Assembly (NCBI GenBank): GCA_038127595.1
Contig: JAYPIC010000053.1
Coordinates: forward strand, 1 to 11,475
DNA length: 11,475 nt
Reading direction: 5' to 3'
Source of the DNA: a bacterium
GTDB lineage: Bacteria > Fidelibacterota > Marinisomatia > Marinisomatales > UBA1611
Positions 139-11,047 of the stretch are shown in pieces. Every line of letters starts with the position of its first letter. Within the stretch, counting starts at the first letter, position 1. Position numbers and translations under genes: made by a program. The notes below the pieces were generated by a model that had not been told where the DNA came from, made no database searches, and saw only the letters and a program-made list of their open reading frames with translations.

Positions 139-1458
139 TTAATTTTTAAACTCTTGAAGATATTCAATGTATCTTTTTTTATCAATTATCTCCTTATTCC
201 ACGTATCTCTAAGTATGAATTCTATTTTTTTATCAATTGTATTTTGTATGTTTTCCCTATATCGTCTATATGCATAATAATCAGTCATGGAGATCTCATT
301 GATCTTATTTTGAAAATACATTATAGGATTTAAATTGAATGTACTTCTTACATAATCATTTTTTAATTCGTTTTCTTTTTCAATTTTTACAGCAGCTTTT
401 TTATTTAAAATATTTACCAGACCTGAAATACTTCTATTAACGATACCTTTATCAACTATGGTGTCTTGCGCGTAAATAGAATTTTTTAAACTAGGGAAAG
501 ACTTTAATAGTTCTTTTTGCAACGTATCGGTCGACATATCAAAAATTTCATATCTTTGATCTCTAGCTACATCAAGATAGTCAACCATATAATTTGTAGA
601 AAATTTTATTGATGCTATTTGGTGAAATAAACCAGGCATAATAATTGATAAGACTGCCCATATCGAAATCATTTTTATTGCCTGGTCGACACTACCTTTA
701 CCCCAATAATTAATTAAATAAAAAACAGAAGTCCATAAAAAAACGTATAAAAGGATTAAAGCTAACAGCTTAAAAAAACTCGTCAATTCATTTGTGAGCG
801 CACCTGATAAAATCGCATATGGTATCAGTAAGAAACATATTAGTAAGAACACAAACAAGAAATAATATGAAAACCTGATCGTCAGCCAAGCCTTTTTGGA
901 AATATTATTTAAATAAATTAGCTTATCAAAACCATTATCTTTTTCTAGCCCACCTATGTTAAATAATAAAATGATAAGTAAAATAGGTGTCAAAAATAAT
1001 AAGACAAAACTAAAATCCAGGGTTCCCAAAGCCAATCGTTCAGGATTTGCAATTTCCTCAGCAAGATCATTATCAAATATAGTGCTCCAATTAGTGGCCT
1101 TTTTATAATAGCCATATTGCTCTGCCTGTCCTGTACTAAAAACAATCATTGGCGATGGATTTTTTAGAACATAAGATGGTGTATTCCATATCGCCCAATA
1201 AGGAATAGTGGGATCTCTTCGAGGTTTTTCAATTAAGCCTTGCTCAAGTTCATCATACTGAACTAACATTTCATTCTCAAAGTCTAAATTTTTACTTTTA
1301 ATACTTTTTATTTCTACGTTGTGTTTTTTAAAAACAGCATAGCTTGTTTGACAACCATAAAAAATTGAAAAAGCATACAATAATATTGAAATAATTTTAT
1401 ATGGAGCATTGACCAAGTGAAAATATTCAAATTTTAAAATATTTAAATATTTATTCAT
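139..1458 (-). CDS. ABC transporter permease, DUF3526/ABC-2-like family (second subunit)
   Basis: 439 aa with an N-terminal TM, a large extracytoplasmic loop, NPERLALGTLDFSFVLLFLTPILLI followed by EKDNG, further TMs and a C-terminal soluble domain. Its start overlaps the upstream permease stop (ATGA, 1455-1458). It lies downstream of an ABC ATPase. Confidence 0.85.
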   Translation of the reverse strand: MNKYLNILKFEYFHLVNAPYKIISILLYAFSIFYGCQTSYAVFKKHNVEIKSIKSKNLDFENEMLVQYDELEQGLIEKPRRDPTIPYWAIWNTPSYVLKNPSPMIVFSTGQAEQYGYYKKATNWSTIFDNDLAEEIANPERLALGTLDFSFVLLFLTPILLIILLFNIGGLEKDNGFDKLIYLNNISKKAWLTIRFSYYFLFVFLLICFLLIPYAILSGALTNELTSFFKLLALILLYVFLWTSVFYLINYWGKGSVDQAIKMISIWAVLSIIMPGLFHQIASIKFSTNYMVDYLDVARDQRYEIFDMSTDTLQKELLKSFPSLKNSIYAQDTIVDKGIVNRSISGLVNILNKKAAVKIEKENELKNDYVRSTFNLNPIMYFQNKINEISMTDYYAYRRYRENIQNTIDKKIEFILRDTWNKEIIDKKRYIEYLQEFKN

Positions 1459-2858
1459 ACCAAGATATCTCTTTTAATTTTATATCTAATTAAATATCCA
1501 GCCAAGATTCCCCATGCAATTAACGCAAGGATATCAGTAAGATAATTTCCAATTTGATTTTTAATCAGCATAGTCTGATAGTCAAAATTTTTTACAGATC
1601 TAAAGAACGTATTATCGACAGTCCACCTCCACTCACCAGTTTTTGAGCCACCATGTGCATGTTTATCATTCAACGTTTTAATAAGATATCTTCTGTAATA
1701 CTCAGCTTTTTTTAAAAAGTCTAAATGATGGATCATATCACTTCCACAAAATCCCATACTAAGATTTTGTAGGGATGAAAAAGGATTTAATAGTCCAGAT
1801 AATTGGTATAGCTTTTTTTGTTTTTGATAAATTAAATAATTATTTCCAAAATGTTTATCCCATACCTGATTACCATACTCTTCATCAGCCTGCATAACAA
1901 TTCCATCAAAATTAATAGGTAGTTGACTAAGGCTATCTACTTTATACTTAATTAAATATTCTTTTTCTAGTTTAGACCGTCTCTCATCTCTTGGATTATG
2001 ACCGTCGATACCTTTAGAACGATCTTCTTTCATTTGAGCAATGAAATTTTGTCGGCTTGGTAAGGGATGAACCTTTTCAATAGTATTACCCCAAATTTTA
2101 GGTAAGAATATTGTCCAAACTATCCAAGTCGCTAAAAGTAATGATATTGCTGAAGTATTATTTTTAAGCCTGGCAGAGATAAAAGTGGATAAACAAACCA
2201 CAATTAAGTAATACAGACCATATGATATAAAAGTAAGCCCTAATCTTAATGCAGTATCCAAAGCTAAAGGGCCAAGTAATAATTGTAAAAAAACTGAGAG
2301 CATGATAAGCATTAATCCATAAAACCAAATACTAATAGATTTAGATAAAATTAATTTCTCCGGAGAAATCCCTTGCAGAGCTATAAGCTTCATTCTTCCA
2401 GTTTCTTTATCATTAGTTATAGAGCCAAAAGATAAAAAAATAAGAAATAAAGGCACTACATACTGTAGGATTATGGAAGGTTTAAGTTTACCAAATTTTG
2501 AAATTGTCATTGACTGTGATGCTTCTGAATGCACAATCTCATTTTGGACATGACCCTCAAGTTTTAAAACATTACCTGTTATAGAACCAACCCCATCATC
2601 TAAGCTGTTTAAAATACTTATTGGTTTAAAAACATAAACACCATAGTGAGCTGCCCTATGTGGGTTCATTGGCTCCAAATTATCCCACTGCGACCTAATA
2701 TGTTTTTCAGCTGCGGCTTGAGCTTTGCTTTGGTTTTCACTTTGTAAGTTGCTCATCCAGGCTAAAGATATAATACTCAGAATGAATATTAATGAGACAT
2801 AAACAATAGAACGATTACGAAATAATATTTTCCACTCATTAAGAATTATTACAATCAT
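1455..2858 (-). CDS. ABC transporter permease, DUF3526/ABC-2-like family
   Basis: 467 aa with motifs NPHRAAHYGVYVFKP, LEGHVQN, DKETGRMKL, GIDGHNP and LPINFDG, which I recognise from DUF3526 permeases. Multiple TM segments. Confidence 0.88.
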   Translation of the reverse strand: MIVIILNEWKILFRNRSIVYVSLIFILSIISLAWMSNLQSENQSKAQAAAEKHIRSQWDNLEPMNPHRAAHYGVYVFKPISILNSLDDGVGSITGNVLKLEGHVQNEIVHSEASQSMTISKFGKLKPSIILQYVVPLFLIFLSFGSITNDKETGRMKLIALQGISPEKLILSKSISIWFYGLMLIMLSVFLQLLLGPLALDTALRLGLTFISYGLYYLIVVCLSTFISARLKNNTSAISLLLATWIVWTIFLPKIWGNTIEKVHPLPSRQNFIAQMKEDRSKGIDGHNPRDERRSKLEKEYLIKYKVDSLSQLPINFDGIVMQADEEYGNQVWDKHFGNNYLIYQKQKKLYQLSGLLNPFSSLQNLSMGFCGSDMIHHLDFLKKAEYYRRYLIKTLNDKHAHGGSKTGEWRWTVDNTFFRSVKNFDYQTMLIKNQIGNYLTDILALIAWGILAGYLIRYKIKRDILV

Positions 2859-2867
2859 TGATATAAA

Positions 2868-3569
2868 TTAGCCTCTCATATAATCAATATATATATTCTC
2901 AAGCTCATTTGTTGTGACTTTGGATGTGTCCATTTGATCAATTAAACTTCCATTTTTGAGTATTCCTATTCTGTCACAAGTTTCGCGCACTCTAAAGATA
3001 TCATGAGATGCCATCAATACAGCAGTGCCTTTTTCAGCGAGGGACTTTAAAGTGGTAGAGAGTTCTGTGCTTGCTAGTGGATCTAATCCGCTAGCAGGTT
3101 CATCTAAAAGTAAAACCTTAGCTTTTTTTGCAAATGCAATAGCAATACCAACTTTTTGCCTCATCCCTTTTGAATAAGATCCTACCTTTTTATAAATGGC
3201 ATCTGAATCTAGTCCACAATCATTTAATATTTTGGATAAGGCTTCATCATCATAGTCATCCCCTGCTATTTTACAAAAATAATTTAAATTTTCAAGTCCA
3301 GTTAAATAAGGGTATAAGTTTACATTTTCAGATATATACCCTATTTTTTTTCGAGCATTATCAGCATGTTTAGTAACATTTATACCATCTATAAACGCCT
3401 CTCCATTATCTGGCTCTAAAAAGCCAAGTAAGATATTTATCGTTGTAGATTTCCCTGCTCCATTTGACCCTAGGAGGCCATAAATTTCACCCTCAGTTAT
3501 TTCAATTGATAAATTTTTTACAGCTACAAAACCACCAAAACTTTTCGTTATATTTTTCAAACTAATCAT
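2868..3569 (-). CDS. ABC transporter ATP-binding protein
   Basis: Walker A GSNGAGKST, signature YSKGMRQ, Walker B LLLDEP and H-loop SHD. GGAG SD at 3581-3584. Confidence 0.97.
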   Translation of the reverse strand: MISLKNITKSFGGFVAVKNLSIEITEGEIYGLLGSNGAGKSTTINILLGFLEPDNGEAFIDGINVTKHADNARKKIGYISENVNLYPYLTGLENLNYFCKIAGDDYDDEALSKILNDCGLDSDAIYKKVGSYSKGMRQKVGIAIAFAKKAKVLLLDEPASGLDPLASTELSTTLKSLAEKGTAVLMASHDIFRVRETCDRIGILKNGSLIDQMDTSKVTTNELENIYIDYMRG

Positions 3570-3584
3570 TATTTAATTATCTCC

Positions 3585-5795
3585 CTAAAAATTAACTTTA
3601 TACCTTAAGTTTATGCCTCTACCTGGCTCAGGCATGATCATTTTTATTTTTGATAAATGATTATAATAAGTCTCATCTAAGATATTTGTAACCTGAAAAA
3701 TTATTTGATGGATATTTTCATTTTTACTAAAAGTATATGAGCAGTTATAGTTCAGTAGTTTGTAACCATCAGTAGGATATTCAAATTCCCCAAGTTTATT
3801 TTGATCAGATACGAAAATACCCTCTATTGTGTTATTTAGAAAAGAAACCCTCTTTTCTAACTGAATTCTGAGTAGATCAGGCGGAATGTATGCTAGTGGC
3901 TCGTCATCTTCTAAATTAAGCCCTCTGCAAATTGATGCATTCGCTAATAAATTAAAATATTTTAGATTTAATTTAGTACTTGGTTCAAATCCTTGGATCA
4001 AGGTTTCTTTCCCATAGAGTTTGTATTTATAAAGCCACCCAGCAGATCCGCTACCCCATTCGATCCAGGTTGCCCCCGGTATATAACCATCTCCCTCTTT
4101 TTGGAGTATATGAAAATTAGTACTATAATTAATGTAACTAGTGAGTTTTAGTTCATGACCCTTGCCGAAGAAGGAAGTCGTATTTTCAAAGCCTATTGTA
4201 TTTTCCTGTTCAAGGTTTGGTTCACCGATTTCATAAGAATAGGTGCCTAGATGGGGGCCATCAGAAAATAGGTCTTCGATTCTTGGAGCACGGCTTGTAA
4301 AAAGGAGATGATTGTATATGGAAATATTATCCCAATTTTTTTGAGCAGAAGCTCCCAATGAGGCTAGTAAATAATCTCGTTTTCTTACATCATCTGCATC
4401 AATATTTGAGAAGAAGGTATCATCAGCACTAGGGTTTATTGAACGATACTCTACTCTTCCAGAAAATTGATACTTTTTATTTGTAAGGTTTTTAGTATGT
4501 ACTCCGAACAAGGAGAATTTCATTTCATTCGTGTTGGGAGTCCATATAAAACCTTTGGTGAAATAATTTCTATTTTGAAAATTTGCTCCAATTTTAAGAT
4601 TTTTTCCTGTAAGCATTGCATTGAAATAAATAATGTCTTGACGCAGGTCTACAGATGCATAGTTTGAGCCTTTTACAAATTCTTTATGGCCGTATTTAAC
4701 ATATCCTTGTTCCAGGTCTAGGATATTAAATGAAAGGTGATTTATATCGCTATGATATTTTAGTTTCTGTGTATGGTTCTTTAGAGCAAGATCAACGCCA
4801 TTAATATGTCCTTCAGGACTTCCTGGGATTCCATAATTCATTGAAAAATCTTTTAATTCAATGGTGATCAGATCTTTTTCTCCAAATTTAGTCAAACCAA
4901 GTGTCAGGTCATTTTTTTCTAATGCAGTATTTTTCAAAGTGCCAATTGGTGAAGACTGATCATGTGCTGATCTGTTGTTTAGGGATAATGAAAATTGATA
5001 GTCATTTAAAGGAATGTTGACTTCAGAACCAATCAAATTCGACTGATTAGAGCTTTCATGGCCAAATAATAGTTTGTAATTAGTTGATGATAATTTTTTT
5101 GGGTTTTTAAAAGGCGTTATAATGTTAATTATCCCCGCAATAGTATTTGAACCGTATGCGAGAGTTTCTGGGCCTCTCATAATTTCGACACCGTCTGCTG
5201 CAGAAATTTCCATACTCACAGCGTGGTCGGCAGTTGTATTAGACATATCGCCGAGTTCAAAACCATCACTAGTAATTAAGAATCTATCGCCTGAGTAACC
5301 TCTTAATATAGGTCTCTGTGTTGCTTGGCCTGAAGATCTAATTGCTATACCTGATTCGCCAGATAATGTTGTCGCGAGATCACTAATTATATTTTTTTCT
5401 AATTTATTACCGACCATTGTTATTGAGGATGGTGCTTTACTTTGATTGCTTTCTTTGTGTGAATGAACCGTTATAGCGTTCATTTTAATTGCTTTCGGGT
5501 TTAGAAATACTTTTATGGTTTGATCATTATTGCTTTGATTAATTACTATGCTAGTATCTTTAAAGCCTATCATTGTAAAAATAAGTTTATTTTCAATTGG
5601 GGCTTTTAACTCAAGGCTGAATCTTCCTTCATTGTCAGAAGATGTACCGTTATCATCATTTTCAATAATTATATTTACACCAGCAATAGGTTCTTGATTT
5701 GTTTTATCAAGGATGATTCCTTTTACACTAAATACGTCATTTGAGTATAGACTTGAAGAAAATAAAAGAATGATGAATGAATATATGCAGCGCAC
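3585..5795 (-). CDS. TonB-dependent receptor, ZnuD-like, with N-terminal carboxypeptidase-regulatory-like domain
   Basis: 736 aa, GTG start, signal peptide. N-terminal domain VKGIILDKTNQEPIAGVNI...GTSSDNEGRF. Plug RPILRGYSGDR...DMSNTTADHAV and EIMRGPETLAYGSNTIAGIIN. Barrel motifs LFSDGPHLGTYSYEIG and NILDETYYNHLS, C-terminal Phe. The DHAV, GPH and NHLS motifs resemble ZnuD-type zinc receptors; the substrate is inferred. Confidence 0.92.
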   Translation of the reverse strand: MRCIYSFIILLFSSSLYSNDVFSVKGIILDKTNQEPIAGVNIIIENDDNGTSSDNEGRFSLELKAPIENKLIFTMIGFKDTSIVINQSNNDQTIKVFLNPKAIKMNAITVHSHKESNQSKAPSSITMVGNKLEKNIISDLATTLSGESGIAIRSSGQATQRPILRGYSGDRFLITSDGFELGDMSNTTADHAVSMEISAADGVEIMRGPETLAYGSNTIAGIINIITPFKNPKKLSSTNYKLLFGHESSNQSNLIGSEVNIPLNDYQFSLSLNNRSAHDQSSPIGTLKNTALEKNDLTLGLTKFGEKDLITIELKDFSMNYGIPGSPEGHINGVDLALKNHTQKLKYHSDINHLSFNILDLEQGYVKYGHKEFVKGSNYASVDLRQDIIYFNAMLTGKNLKIGANFQNRNYFTKGFIWTPNTNEMKFSLFGVHTKNLTNKKYQFSGRVEYRSINPSADDTFFSNIDADDVRKRDYLLASLGASAQKNWDNISIYNHLLFTSRAPRIEDLFSDGPHLGTYSYEIGEPNLEQENTIGFENTTSFFGKGHELKLTSYINYSTNFHILQKEGDGYIPGATWIEWGSGSAGWLYKYKLYGKETLIQGFEPSTKLNLKYFNLLANASICRGLNLEDDEPLAYIPPDLLRIQLEKRVSFLNNTIEGIFVSDQNKLGEFEYPTDGYKLLNYNCSYTFSKNENIHQIIFQVTNILDETYYNHLSKIKMIMPEPGRGINLRYKVNF

Positions 5796-5870: not shown

Positions 5871-6392
5871 TTAATTAACAGTTACAACAACATCATTCGT
5901 AGATGTATAGTCTGCATGACCATCATGCATTAATTGAAGAGTAAAGGATGTACTACCTGAATTTACTCCAATGATGTGTAAAGCAGCTCCATGCTCTTCA
6001 TCATGGTCATGATCGTGGTCATCACCTTCTTCCTCATGTTCCACTTCAACGATAGCAATGCTAGCATTAGCACCAGACACTTCTAATTCACCTTCTTCAT
6101 GTTCTTCACCTTCTTCTTCCTCATGCTCGATTTCCTCACCTTCATGATTTAAAAAATGAACTGCGAGCTCTAAAGTGTCTCCGACATTTAATGATACAGA
6201 ACCAGTAACAGAACCTTCAAATTCTCTATAAATTTCAGTTCCATTGCTTTCTAAAATGAATCCATCGGCATCTGTGTGTTCACGGTCATGATTATCGTGG
6301 TCGTCATCCTCACAACCTGTTGTGAACAATAGTACGAAAGAAAGTAAAAATATAGCATGCGCTTTAACGGCGCGTAAAAAAGATAATTGCAT
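5871..6392 (-). CDS. Acidic His-rich lipoprotein, putative metal-binding partner of the TBDR
   Basis: 173 aa. Signal peptide ending in a lipobox-like FTTG-C27. 16 His, including tracts DDDHDNHDREH, HEEEEGEEHEE and HEEEGDDHDHDHDEEH. SD AGGAG at 6401-6405. Confidence 0.85.
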   Translation of the reverse strand: MQLSFLRAVKAHAIFLLSFVLLFTTGCEDDDHDNHDREHTDADGFILESNGTEIYREFEGSVTGSVSLNVGDTLELAVHFLNHEGEEIEHEEEEGEEHEEGELEVSGANASIAIVEVEHEEEGDDHDHDHDEEHGAALHIIGVNSGSTSFTLQLMHDGHADYTSTNDVVVTVN

Positions 6393-6400
6393 TTTATATG

Positions 6401-6473
6401 CTCCTATAAAAATAGATTAACTGCTAATCACAACCGTTGTAATTAGCTAAAATAAAAGTTGATTTATAGGTAG
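6401..6473 (-). promoter_or_regulatory. SD-sequestering mRNA structure linking the leader ORF 3' end to the lipoprotein RBS
   Basis: On the minus strand, CCUAUAAA (6470-6463, end of the Tyr-Leu-stop codons) pairs with UUUAUAGG (6410-6403, overlapping the AGGAG SD). This encloses an inner hairpin GCUAAUUACAACGGUUGUGAUUAGC (6447-6423). Confidence 0.7.
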
Positions 6474-6811
6474 GTAGGTGGGGCCCTTGAACTATTAGAA
6501 TGGTGGCCAACACTTTTAATAAATGAGCTAGCATCATTCTTGAAAGTTAAAACTGAGTTATTATGAATAGAATTAATATGAACATTTATGAAAAACTTAT
6601 GCTTCCCTGAATTATTAATACAATCTTCGCACTCGTTGTGCATTGAATGGTGTTCAGCAGTATCACAACCTTGATTACAGATACCGTATCCCTCTTCAAA
6701 ATGGTGGGCATGTTCATCTAGATTTAAGCCAGTAAAAACTAATAAGAAAGATAATAAGTACTGGTTAAATACTTTGATGTAGCTCATTATGTTACTTTTA
6801 TTTCTGTTCAT
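6464..6811 (-). CDS. His/Cys-rich leader peptide with C-terminal RAPP arrest motif (DUF2946/CruR/CutF-like)
   Basis: 115 aa (alternative start Met9 at 6787). Hydrophobic YLLSFLLVFTGL, then HAHH, CNQGC, HHSMH and CEDC; ends SRAPPTYL. It is the first ORF of the TBDR operon. Confidence 0.8.
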   Translation of the reverse strand: MNRNKSNIMSYIKVFNQYLLSFLLVFTGLNLDEHAHHFEEGYGICNQGCDTAEHHSMHNECEDCINNSGKHKFFINVHINSIHNNSVLTFKNDASSFIKSVGHHSNSSRAPPTYL

Positions 6812-6956: not shown

Positions 6957-8360
6957 GTGAGCGAAAAAAATATAAGAAAATTTTATCCTTTACTTTTTAT
7001 ATCATTATTATGGTTCCTTAGTCCGCCAGAAGGACTAAGTGTTCAAGGATATAGGATATTCATAGTTTTCTTATCAGTCATTTTTTCTCTTTTATTGCAA
7101 CAGATCTCGATGGCATTAAGTGTACTTGGTGGTCTAATTTTCTCTACAGTATCTGGGTTGATTCCGATTAAGGTTGCTTTAAAAGGGTATGGAGATTCAA
7201 CTACTTGGCTAGTAGTTAATGCCTTTTTAATAGCAGGCGTAATTATTCAAACAGGCTTAGGTAAAAGGATATCTCTTCTATGCATATTTTATCTAGGTAA
7301 AACAATGAGTGGCCTTGGATATGCTTTATGCTGCGCAGAACTTATTTTAGGGCCAGTAGTGCCTTCAAATACTGCCAGAGGTGGTGGTATATTAGCTCCA
7401 ATTGTTGATTCTATATCTAGAGCATTGGGTTCTACACCTTTAGACAAACCTGAAAAAGCAGGAGCATACTTGCATTTAATAGGTGCGCATGCTAATCTAA
7501 TAACTGCTGCAATGTTTTTAACCGGTATGGCGGCAAACCCTATTGTTTCAAAGGCAGCTTATGATATTTTTGAAATTGAGTATAATTGGCTGGACTGGGC
7601 ACTTGGAGCTATGGTTCCAGGATTAGTGGGATTAGCTCTTTTGCCATTATTCATGATGTATTTAGCTCCTCCTAAAATATCTTCAATAGAACCAGTAAGA
7701 GAAAAAATAAAGCAAGATCTAAAAAAAATAGGGCCATGGACTTTTCATGAGAAAAGCACTGCTGCAGTAATGGTTATGATGGTCCTATTATGGTTAACCA
7801 AAAACTTGCATGGAATAGGAACGACCACTGTCACATTCTTGGGAATTATTTTTATCTTATTTTCAGGCGCCGCATCTTGGGAAAGTATGATAAAAAATCA
7901 TAAGGCCTGGGATGCTTTGATTTGGCTTGGAGGACTTTTGACCCTTGCTACTAGTCTAAAAGATTTAGGATTTATATTGTGGTTTACAAGTTTCCTTCAA
8001 AACATGCTAACAGATTTTACGCCGTTGGTGATTTTTACTTTGGTTGTAATAATCTATTTCTACTCAATGTATTTATTTTCAATGTTAACGGCACACATTG
8101 TTGCCCTAGCAAGTGCGATGATGCTTCTAGCCTCTGAAATAAATTTAGCTCCACTGGTGATCATTTCTTGCATCGCGTATTTTTCAAATTTAAGCGGATG
8201 CTTGACTAACTATTCCACAGGGCCAATAATCATTTATTTTGGCAATGGATATTTGTCAACGTTAAAATGGTTTAAAATTGGTTTTCTAGTTTCCTTATAT
8301 CACATAACTATTTGGCTAGGAATTGGATCGGTATGGTGGAGGATATTAGGTTGGTGGTAG
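6957..8360 (+). CDS. DASS family anion/dicarboxylate transporter (CitT / 2-oxoglutarate-malate translocator-like)
   Basis: 467 aa, GTG start, highly hydrophobic. Motifs TGLGKRI, PSNTARGGGI, AMFLTGMAANP, AWDALIW, FSMLTAH, LTNYSTGP and a WW..LGW C-terminus. Confidence 0.93.
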   Translation: MSEKNIRKFYPLLFISLLWFLSPPEGLSVQGYRIFIVFLSVIFSLLLQQISMALSVLGGLIFSTVSGLIPIKVALKGYGDSTTWLVVNAFLIAGVIIQTGLGKRISLLCIFYLGKTMSGLGYALCCAELILGPVVPSNTARGGGILAPIVDSISRALGSTPLDKPEKAGAYLHLIGAHANLITAAMFLTGMAANPIVSKAAYDIFEIEYNWLDWALGAMVPGLVGLALLPLFMMYLAPPKISSIEPVREKIKQDLKKIGPWTFHEKSTAAVMVMMVLLWLTKNLHGIGTTTVTFLGIIFILFSGAASWESMIKNHKAWDALIWLGGLLTLATSLKDLGFILWFTSFLQNMLTDFTPLVIFTLVVIIYFYSMYLFSMLTAHIVALASAMMLLASEINLAPLVIISCIAYFSNLSGCLTNYSTGPIIIYFGNGYLSTLKWFKIGFLVSLYHITIWLGIGSVWWRILGWW

Positions 8361-9363: not shown

Positions 9364-10677
9364 ATTATAAAAGCTTCTTTTCAAAAAATTTTTAACAGTT
9401 ATAGAGAGTTACCAAGTAACGTTCATCTTTTATTTTTACTTGAGTTTAGTTTAAGTCTGATTCATGTTGCCTTCATTTTAATATTAAATATTTATCTTCG
9501 AAAAAAAGGGTTTTCAGATCCTGAAATTGCGTCATTTAATTCACTAAGGTTTGTAGGCGCATTAGCTTTTGCTTTACCTCTCGGAATTTTCATTAGAGGA
9601 AAAAAATTAAAACCATTTTTTGTTCTTTCTTCTTTAGCAGTTCCTTTAACTAGTATTATGATAATCGAATCAATTAAGCACTCAATCATTCCATTAATTC
9701 AATTAGCATTTCTTTTATGGGGAATTGGAATGATGATTATGAGAGTATGTTCATTACCATTTATCATTAGAAATACGACAAGTCAAAATAGTACCGAATC
9801 GCTATCCTTAAGTGCCTCTACATGGAGTTTAGCAACGATTTTTTCTGGTCTAATAATATCTGGTTTAGATTGGATCGCAAATATTGAGATTTTTGAAAGA
9901 AGTTTTTCCTTTGACGAATATAGCATTTTGTGGATTATTACCGTCATTGGTTTAGTCTCATTTTCATTTGCAATCAAGATAAATGAAAACGACGATGAGC
10001 TAAGTCAAAAGCAAAGTGGCATATTTTCATTGCGTCAAAATTATGATTGGAACTTAATATTTAGAGCTATCTCTCCATTGATTCTTATTTCAATTGGAGC
10101 GGGACTAACGATCCCTTTTGTAAATCTATTTTTTAATTCAATATTTAATTTGAGCTCTAGCGATTTTAGTTTGCTTGGAAGTTTTACAGCACTATTGGTT
10201 TTTATTTTTTCACTTCTAGTTCCAACGCTTAGAAAAAAATATGGATACTGGGCTACAATTGTGCTTAATCAAAGTCTAGCAATAGTCTTTTTAATAATAA
10301 TGGCGACAACGGAATTGTATGCAGCATCTAGTTATGCAATTATCATTGCTATTAGCGCGTATGTACTCAGGCAACCTCTAATGCATATGGCACATCCTGC
10401 TTCCAATGAATTGATGATGAATTATGTTGGTAAAAAAAACCAGGAACTAATTAGTGCATTAAGTTCTAGTTTATGGAGTGCATCCTGGTTTATTAGCGCA
10501 AAAATATTTGAATGGCTAAGAATATTAGAATTTCAATATTTTGAAATATTCCTAATTACAGCTGCTCTTTACATCATGGGAGTTGTTTTATTTGGATTTC
10601 TGATTGGCCAGTATGAAAAAAATAGTAGAAAAAGTAATCAGATATTGCCAATAGCTGACGAGTTATCTATTGATTGA
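9364..10677 (+). CDS. MFS transporter (start extended about 98 codons upstream of the ORF-track call; exact start uncertain)
   Basis: The frame is open from 9352 (after TAA 9349-9351) and encodes YRELPSNVHLLFLLEF...ILNIYLRKKGFSDPEIASFNSLRFVGALAFALPLG, a typical MFS TM1-TM2. The second half has LISIGAGLTIPFVNLFF and LRKKYG. About 437 aa fits a 12-TM MFS protein. Confidence 0.8.
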   Translation: MIKASFQKIFNSYRELPSNVHLLFLLEFSLSLIHVAFILILNIYLRKKGFSDPEIASFNSLRFVGALAFALPLGIFIRGKKLKPFFVLSSLAVPLTSIMIIESIKHSIIPLIQLAFLLWGIGMMIMRVCSLPFIIRNTTSQNSTESLSLSASTWSLATIFSGLIISGLDWIANIEIFERSFSFDEYSILWIITVIGLVSFSFAIKINENDDELSQKQSGIFSLRQNYDWNLIFRAISPLILISIGAGLTIPFVNLFFNSIFNLSSSDFSLLGSFTALLVFIFSLLVPTLRKKYGYWATIVLNQSLAIVFLIIMATTELYAASSYAIIIAISAYVLRQPLMHMAHPASNELMMNYVGKKNQELISALSSSLWSASWFISAKIFEWLRILEFQYFEIFLITAALYIMGVVLFGFLIGQYEKNSRKSNQILPIADELSID

Positions 10678-10738
10678 AAAATACATTAGTAATGTTATGC
10701 AGGAAATACATATATTTGTTCAACTAATGGAGTATTTT

Positions 10739-11047
10739 ATGAAAAAATTATTTATAGCTTCTTTCCTATTCTCTTTTTTGTTGGCCGAGGATAGCAAAAT
10801 TAATCTTAAAATCGATGGCATGCAGTGTGCGTATAGCTGTGCAGGTAAAGTTTCTCAGGTAGTTCAGAGTATCAAAGGCGTAGAGGAATGTGAAGTTGAC
10901 TTTGCTACTGGTACGGCAGTCGTTAAGTATGATGAGAAAAAAGTGAATTCCGATAACATAATAAAGCTAATAAACAAAAAGACATATTATAAAGCTGCGG
11001 TTGATAAAAAAGAATGTGCTAGTAAAGAAAAAAGTACTTCTATTTAA
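10739..11047 (+). CDS. Exported heavy-metal-associated (HMA) domain protein, MerP/CopZ-like
   Basis: GGAG SD at 10729-10732 precedes ATG 10739. Signal peptide MKKLFIASFLFSFLLA, then LKIDGMQCAYSCAGKV...GVEECEVDFATGTAVVKYD. 102 aa. Confidence 0.88.
   Translation: MKKLFIASFLFSFLLAEDSKINLKIDGMQCAYSCAGKVSQVVQSIKGVEECEVDFATGTAVVKYDEKKVNSDNIIKLINKKTYYKAAVDKKECASKEKSTSI

Follow-up and report, generated by a model that had tools for sequence, protein, structure and literature searches.

Leader gene and operon organization

The question raised by this locus is whether a small gene with an arrest-type C-terminus controls, through its own last codons, the transport genes that follow it, and which signal it would answer. 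The window, meaning the whole stretch of 11,475 nucleotides that was analysed, contains on its minus strand a leader ORF followed by genes for a lipoprotein, a TonB-dependent receptor and an ABC system. The features are listed below in the order of transcription.

6464..6811, minus strand: leader ORF of 115 aa (107 aa with the second Met, at 6787, as start), C-terminus SRAPPTYL-stop
6725..6760, minus strand: hydrophobic segment, leader residues 18-29, mean Kyte-Doolittle value 2.13, likely a signal or anchor as judged from composition
6620..6679, minus strand: leader Cys/His cluster C45xxxC49, H54-H55, H58, C61xxC64, a predicted metal site
6476..6487, minus strand: RAPP arrest-type motif, with its second Pro codon at 6478-6476
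6481-6479, minus strand: expected P-site codon, Pro111, placed by analogy with the peptides in PMC10987492 and PMC12992588
6463..6470, minus strand: anti-SD arm CCUAUAAA, made of the third base of the Tyr codon, the Leu and stop codons and the base that follows
6423..6447, minus strand: inner 11-bp hairpin, from the fold; its shape is kept, its sequence is not
6401..6410, minus strand: 3' arm UUUAUAGG and Shine-Dalgarno (SD) sequence AGGAG (6405-6401) of the lipoprotein gene, from sequence and fold
6389..6401, minus strand: small GCAU/AUGC hairpin over the start codon, predicted, p 0.91-0.96
5871..6392, minus strand: His/Glu-rich predicted lipoprotein of 173 aa with a TGC lipobox-like site, no Pfam family; predicted first regulated gene
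3585..5795, minus strand: TonB-dependent receptor, nearest named relative ZnuD, far below the model cut-off
2868..3569, minus strand: ABC ATPase (PF00005)
1455..2858, minus strand: ABC-2-type permease with DUF3526 (PF12040, PF12679)
139..1458, minus strand: second ABC-2-type permease-like gene, weak PF12040 and PF12679 matches below cut-off

The leader is separated from the lipoprotein gene by 71 nt and is the only small RxPP-ending ORF located upstream of a gene in a scan of the window's genome. The search of Pfam and NCBIfam gave nothing for the leader or the lipoprotein, and the Rfam scan of the window at the gathering score returned 0 matches to known riboswitch or leader families. The terminator scan of the window found no terminator-like site and, by that scan, the inner hairpin is therefore not an intrinsic terminator. 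Promoter-like sites are rarer in the window than in shuffled sequence. Two RNA contigs from two studies span the leader and the lipoprotein gene; they give no strand, level or ends and, since DNA may be present in RNA libraries, they are not counted as proof of co-transcription.

Two neighbours lie outside the operon. A divergent DASS anion symporter gene (6957-8360, plus strand) has a 145-nt upstream region in common with the leader, and a different gene takes this place in most relatives. A heavy-metal-associated (HMA) domain protein is encoded after an MFS gene (10670-11047, plus strand), about 4 kb from the operon.

The leader peptide family

Relatives of the leader are numerous: 289 were found at E<=0.001 among 50%-identity representatives. 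In an alignment of 41 leaders only C61 and the Pro-Pro pair are invariant, while C64 and R109 are present in at least 90%. The spacer between the CxxC and the arrest motif is 44 residues in the window and 41-45 residues in 71 of the 81 leaders analysed below; no CxxC was found in 10 of the 81. A hydrophobic 12-residue N-terminal window (at least 1.6, by hydropathy only) occurs in 66 of 67 full-length leaders. The arrest motif itself is RAPP in 39 of the 81 leaders, RPPP in 34, RGPP in 5 and another sequence in 3; the RPPP ending (34/81) has no mention in the EMBO J paper, which speaks against the arrest model for these leaders. Three leaders (L018, L021 and L025) end in SLPPP, KSPP and RSPP, respectively, with the CxxC and its spacing kept, which represents a natural drift of the arrest motif.

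As read from the sequence, the leader has the anatomy of CruR and DUF2946 proteins: an export segment, a CxxC, a spacer of 44 residues and RAPP. The nearest Pfam-bearing Atlas cluster is also DUF2946, with a language-model score of 0.95 and 159/256 features, the family being present on 36% of that cluster. PF11162 (DUF2946) matched neither the leader nor anything else in the window's genome, and it is absent among the best 25 of the 28 weak families for 41 leader members. Since there is no PF11162 match, the leader is not filed as DUF2946.

Predicted fold of the leader-lipoprotein junction

The minus strand of the region 6380-6500 was folded, and the minimum free energy (MFE) structure, the centroid and the pair probabilities were compared. 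The MFE is -23.3 kcal/mol (z -2.37), and 4 of 200 shuffled sequences are as good. According to the original prediction, CUACCUAUAAA at 6473-6463 pairs with UUUAUAGGAG at 6410-6401 by 8 contiguous pairs plus two more across a bulged A, and covers the whole AGGAG; the arms were thought to be joined by the inner hairpin (6447-6423) and by an AACU/AGUU pairing. A sequence check shows that both arms and the hairpin are correctly positioned. The 8 contiguous pairs CCUAUAAA/UUUAUAGG (6470-6463 with 6403-6410) are found in both the MFE and centroid structures, with p of 0.90-0.99. The two extra pairs are not reproduced (U6472-A6402, p 0.05; C6473-G6401, p <0.02), and the 8-bp helix hides AGG only rather than the whole AGGAG. 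G6401 is paired instead (p 0.96) in the 4-bp GCAU/AUGC hairpin, which holds the AUG of the lipoprotein gene.

The AACU/AGUU pairing has to be abandoned, with p of 0.02-0.03; its G6421 is replaced by A in the other 8 near relatives aligned and in four of four RNA runs. The outer pair of the inner hairpin is formed with p 1.0. Its supposed role as a bridge does not hold: when the hairpin is shuffled, the outer helix keeps a median p of 0.96, and 33 of 40 shuffles leave it above 0.5. Thus, in the model, the hairpin is not needed to join the arms.

Geometry of the stalled ribosome

The RAPP-type peptides described in PMC10987492 and PMC12992588, CruR included, arrest with the third residue of the motif in the P site. 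In the extent originally proposed (from 6473), the anti-SD arm begins 3 nt beyond the second Pro codon (6478-6476), as the sequence check confirms. Counted from the start of the expected P-site codon, the arm of the 8-bp helix occupies positions +12 to +19. Opening the SD in the window costs 6.7 kcal/mol when nothing is masked; once 13 nt or more, counted from the RAPP P-site codon, are blocked, the cost is 3.0 kcal/mol. Masks of up to 11 nt make no change (6.9 kcal/mol), and a mask of 12 nt gives 4.1 kcal/mol. In this model the window's switch would need a ribosome footprint of 13 nt or more. About 15 nt are covered by a ribosome on its downstream side, which is enough for the predicted switch to work; the arm is reached, however, only by the leading edge of the footprint and is not deep inside it.

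Folding with and without the arm blocked gave the expected result: the SD is hidden when the arm is free and is cheaper to open when the arm is masked. The proposed secM-like geometry has support from computation and conservation, with the arm within reach of the P site and the SD freed by masking in the window and in most homologues. Because the masking geometry opens the SD, a stall would correspond to the on state. The stop codon is inside the helix, so a terminating ribosome would briefly open it too. About 3 kcal/mol of the opening cost is left in the window after masking. The start-codon hairpin at 6389-6401 is predicted to persist under the stalled-ribosome mask, and some local hairpin over the start codon occurs in 39 of 81 homologous loci; in the model this hairpin may damp the on state.

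Homologous loci

Of 301 genomes from the class to which this bacterium belongs, 83 gave a match to the lipoprotein. Loci from these genomes, from metagenomes and from genome collections were gathered to a total of 109, of which one without a usable start was set aside. A leader ending in Pro-Pro occurs within 250 nt in 93 of the remaining 108 loci; after 9 duplicates and 3 loci containing N had been taken out, 81 remained for analysis. The arrangement of leader and operon is conserved across several families of the class: a TonB receptor follows the lipoprotein in 72 of the 74 loci with enough DNA, and the median leader-lipoprotein spacer among homologues is 74 nt.

Across the 81 loci, the median cost of SD opening is 5.7 kcal/mol unmasked and 1.9 kcal/mol when 15 nt are masked. 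The decrease is at least 1.5 kcal/mol in 64/81 loci, against 12/135 same-strand control junctions of the window's genome, and at least 3 kcal/mol in 50/81 against 3/135 such junctions; related loci are not independent in either comparison. Only 10 control junctions have a perfect SD, of which 2 show a decrease of at least 1.5 kcal/mol and none a decrease of at least 3.7 kcal/mol. No clear switch is seen in 17 of the 81 loci.

The longest helix over the GG of the SD maps to P-3..P+15 in 60 of 81 loci with a peak at +11 (0-based), and the register of the window's anti-SD arm is the commonest one among homologues. The longest SD helix has at least 6 bp in 52/81 loci and at least 8 bp in 37/81. 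In 29/81 loci the footprint zone contains no helix that reaches 6 bp.

It is important to separate codon choice from Pro/Leu composition: Pro and Leu codons are C/U-rich, and the RNA evidence is for this reason only partly independent of the peptide. Synonymous recoding of the last leader codons weakens the duplex in 71 of 81 loci (p<=0.05 in 30). In the full fold it lowers SD protection in 69 of 81, by at least 1 kcal/mol in 56, and the reverse is seen in 1. CUC, the rarest Leu codon of the window's genome (1647 of 40695 Leu codons, 4%), is found at P+9 in 20 of 81 loci, with codon usage taken from the window's genome only. In an arm-swap comparison the native 5' arm is better than the mean foreign arm in 58 of 81 loci, a result that is only moderate because many loci have an identical arm. 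For the window alone, the duplex is no better than its synonymous recodings (p 0.46), although in the full fold SD protection is 5.8 kcal/mol for the native sequence and 3.9 kcal/mol for the recoded ones (10 recodings). The case for more than chance therefore rests on the homologues. The pairing had been offered as support independent of the peptide; the synonymous control clears most of the doubt about this for the family, but not for the window taken alone. Codon choice in the family is tuned for SD pairing.

Covariation

Of the 84 unique loci, 47 were aligned plainly with MAFFT, and covariation of the outer stem was counted for nine pairs chosen by the analyst from these same sequences. The nine outer pairs are formed in 84% of cells, with the peak at slide 0. 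Cells with a double change number 18 against 8.7 in shuffles (0/500), but covarying pairs are not above the shuffle level (5 against 4.5, 268/500). In a quick tree of 80 rows, an A-U pair in the clade of the window corresponds to U-A in its sister loci L011/L053, and the A-U pair of L036 to G-C in L037/L060. In other registers (0-3, 6, 8, 10, 13-14), the pairing has been rebuilt by several clades.

RNAalifold gave no pair at all, either in the 47-locus alignment or in frame-anchored blocks of 47 and 81 loci. With 17 loci it gave the inner hairpin only and missed the outer stem; with 9 near relatives it found the outer stem without a double change, a pair being broken in two or three of them. 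Register shifts may explain the failure on broad sets. The covariation that was anticipated across homologues is thus seen in a few compensatory changes and the excess of double changes, but not in the count of covarying pairs or in RNAalifold on broad sets. Overall these alignments suggest moderate, not formal, support for the outer stem. The inner hairpin, by contrast, shows clear covariation, with double changes in 6 of 7 pairs (17 loci), and the inner segment has z<=-2 in 59 of 81 loci.

Comparison with known systems

CruR of Bordetella pertussis (Bp2923, DUF2946/PF11162, PMC9426467; arrest in PMC12992588) is likewise the first gene of a TonB-receptor operon, with an export segment, a CxxC and a RAPP three residues from the end. 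Its CxxC-RAPP spacer is 45 residues, against 44 here, and the length matters (PMC9426467). Its polarity, in which the stall turns uptake on and metal releases it, is also expected here. However, CruR senses Cu and acts by Rho-dependent termination over a 162-nt spacer, while the present locus has a 71-nt spacer and an anti-SD arm in the last codons. The window's leader also differs in its additional CxxxC/His cluster, its zinc-type-looking cargo and the lack of a PF11162 match.

CutF of Rhodobacter capsulatus (PMC9973294, bioRxiv 10.1101/2025.02.05.636593) is also an exported Cys-containing leader with a C-terminal proline motif, and its stall melts a stem-loop that hides the SD of the next gene. 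In CutF, Cu prolongs the stall and induces a detoxifying oxidase. Since the cargo here is an importer, the opposite polarity is expected. In SecM-secA and the RQH family (ApdA, ApdP, uDF_RQH; PMC10987492) a RAPP-like arrest also places the third residue in the P site, and the stalled ribosome exposes a downstream SD, as shown there by stem mutants, whereas the stem here is predicted. These peptides monitor Sec/YidC activity, precede sec genes and have no metal-binding cluster.

Caulobacter znuK-znuGHI (PMC4176598) has, by description, a similar gene set, with an ABC-2 ATPase and two permeases next to a TonB receptor. As in the window's genome, DUF3526 was found in Caulobacter and ZnuA was not. 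The Caulobacter genes are under Zur control of transcription, and no leader was found in the part of PMC4176598 that is accessible.

SD-hiding stems under stalled ribosomes are already known from CutF and the RQH peptides, and RAPP leaders before TonB receptors have been described as widespread. More uORF variants are expected according to PMC9426467, which also notes that no Cu or Zn riboswitch is known; how RAPP leaders control downstream genes is left open in PMC12992588. A literature search, which covered sources other than subscription journals, found among the papers listed none on this leader family or on a zinc-sensing arrest peptide. The list of CutF-like proteins (5,334 proteins; PMC9973294) or of GTDB RAPP ORFs (PMC12992588) may already include these leaders. 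What is new is the unnamed leader family, its probable zinc cargo, the combination of CruR polarity with an SD switch, and the frequent RPPP.

Nature of the metal

The receptor scores 124.8 bits against the ZnuD model NF038289 (cut-off 950), the best of 19 models, and matches 4rdr with an E of 3.5e-23. It is much nearer to ZnuD than to the copper receptor OprC. DUF3526 was found only in Caulobacter among 14 control genomes, where Zur represses a TonB receptor that adjoins an ABC-2 system (PMC4176598). Caulobacter znuH/I may correspond to the DUF3526 match. No ZnuA was found in the window's genome, which is 95.8% complete, and its two Fur-family genes resemble Fur and PerR. A search for operators upstream of 64 leaders found no shared palindrome beyond A/T runs, and six Zur/Fur-like patterns occur in 0 or 1 of these upstream regions each. 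The ZnuD-like receptor, the link of DUF3526 to Caulobacter, the absence of a ZnuA match, the resemblance of the Fur-family genes to Fur and PerR and the lack of a shared operator together make zinc the best guess for the metal, and the genes probably form a zinc-uptake operon.

Proposed mechanism and alternatives

The locus consists of a leader with an export segment, a CxxC, a fixed spacer and an RxPP end, 71 nt upstream of a lipoprotein-TonB receptor-ABC operon. The predicted 8-bp helix, backed by conservation, would hide the AGG of the lipoprotein SD. Arrest with Pro111 in the P site, as in the tested RAPP peptides, would mask the C-G pairs of the arm at +12/+13 and open the SD. At arrest the Cys/His cluster would be outside the exit tunnel, as suggested by the 44-residue spacer and by CruR, where it could bind metal, fold and pull the chain free. 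After release, the ribosome would terminate three codons further on and the helix would refold. The downstream genes may follow through coupling, mRNA decay or Rho polarity when the lipoprotein is untranslated. The metal, to judge from the cargo genes, would be zinc. A stall caused by low metal and released by metal is suggested by the importer-like cargo and by analogy with CruR. On balance we lean to the reading in which scarcity of a metal, most likely zinc, leads to a stall, an open SD and uptake, and metal binding frees the chain and lets the helix refold. The more specific proposal, that in an abundant marine lineage a zinc-sensing arrest peptide replaces Zur, with zinc releasing the RAPP/RPPP stall and the anti-SD arm then shutting the lipoprotein-ZnuD-like-ABC operon, is put forward tentatively, as it may well not hold in full.

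The same RNA switch could serve another signal or polarity: the metal could be Cu, Ni or Co, or a stall prolonged by metal as in CutF could give induction by excess. ABC-2 systems are classically exporters. A CxxC with a matching spacer senses Cu in CruR, CutF joins an SD-hiding stem to metal-enhanced stalling, and His-rich CutF-like proteins have been linked to Ni/Co genes. We regard this as rather unlikely, since the receptor is much closer to ZnuD than to OprC, a TonB receptor is an importer, which makes induction by excess unlikely, and the Caulobacter set of receptor and ABC-2 genes is zinc-repressed (PMC4176598). Control might also be mainly transcriptional, in the manner of CruR, with release of the stall leading to Rho termination in the spacer, pausing at the inner hairpin, and the SD helix being secondary. 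Rho is present in the window's genome, the last 120 nt of the leader contain 26 C and 14 G, the inner hairpin is conserved yet dispensable for the outer helix, and CruR acts in this way upstream of a TonB receptor; Poribacteria relatives, moreover, have spacers of 389-541 nt. Against this, spacers here are short (median 74 nt), the codons are tuned for SD pairing, and the excess of C is due in part to Pro/Ser/His codons, so Rho as the main control is considered unlikely; Rho termination and the SD helix can nevertheless coexist.

It is improbable that no metal is sensed at all, the helix merely coupling the lipoprotein to translation of the leader, or the leader monitoring export like SecM. 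A terminating ribosome would indeed open the helix, as the stop codon is within it, the leader has an export-like segment, and RAPP peptides that monitor Sec are known; but the invariant Cys, the conserved His and the fixed spacer would have no role in mere coupling, the cargo is not Sec machinery, and locus L070 has a Fur-family gene in the place of the leader. Finally, the pairing could simply result from base composition, since Pro/Leu codons are C/U-rich, the SD is purine-rich and the genome is AU-rich, as might be read from the non-significant result for the window alone against synonymous recoding and from the failure of RNAalifold on broad alignments. The synonymous control (69/81), the enrichment of a rare codon, the control junctions and the double changes make this very hard to accept.

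For a specialist, the principle behind the metal-responsive switch favoured here would hold no surprise. In the papers found, copper is the only metal for which metal-sensing arrest peptides have been tested (CruR, CutF). The present family offers a compact testable case: 81 variants occur naturally, the helix is defined and has compensatory pairs in nature, and RAPP is represented as well as RPPP. If the reading is correct, the polarity of CruR is joined here to the RNA mechanism of CutF, for a metal without a tested uORF in the literature found, and RPPP would be an arrest motif that is regulated in nature. Should the signal be zinc, translation would be the level at which a streamlined marine bacterium, in which neither Zur nor ZnuA is evident, could adjust its zinc uptake.

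Loci with a different organization

Nine of the 15 loci outside the set of 93 were inspected. Three Poribacteria loci (L105, L107, L108) have His/Cys RAPP leaders located 389-541 nt upstream of the lipoprotein. Extensive folding is predicted for the long spacer of L105, and there the sequence close to RAPP pairs near the SD. L077 is cut short, and no leader was seen on inspection of L082, L085 and L086. Among the six others, L101 and L106 are positional repeats of L082 and L087; L065, L089 and L091 are near the locus end, and L109 is a weak archaeal match.

In L070 (1383-1772; G119:C34), a locus without a RAPP leader, a Fur-family gene lies directly upstream of the lipoprotein. It has a divergent MerC-like gene, and an inverted motif of the TGC-N9-GCA type lies between the MerC-like and Fur-family genes. 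From the sequence it looks like transcriptional control replaces the leader in this locus. L087 (1-1240; G139:C24), whose leader was missed by the filter and which is not in the counts, has a Fur-family gene, a MerC-domain gene and then a RAPP leader. Pairing is predicted between the Pro codons of this leader and AGGGGA, the SD of a secreted lipoprotein fusion form of 577 aa, which has a C-terminal sorting-like domain.

Some genomes contain two or three copies of the leader-lipoprotein unit: G280 (L013, L040, L041), G246 (L014, L042) and G155 (L029, L052). The copies differ in anti-SD register, and possibly they represent units for different metals or binning mixtures.
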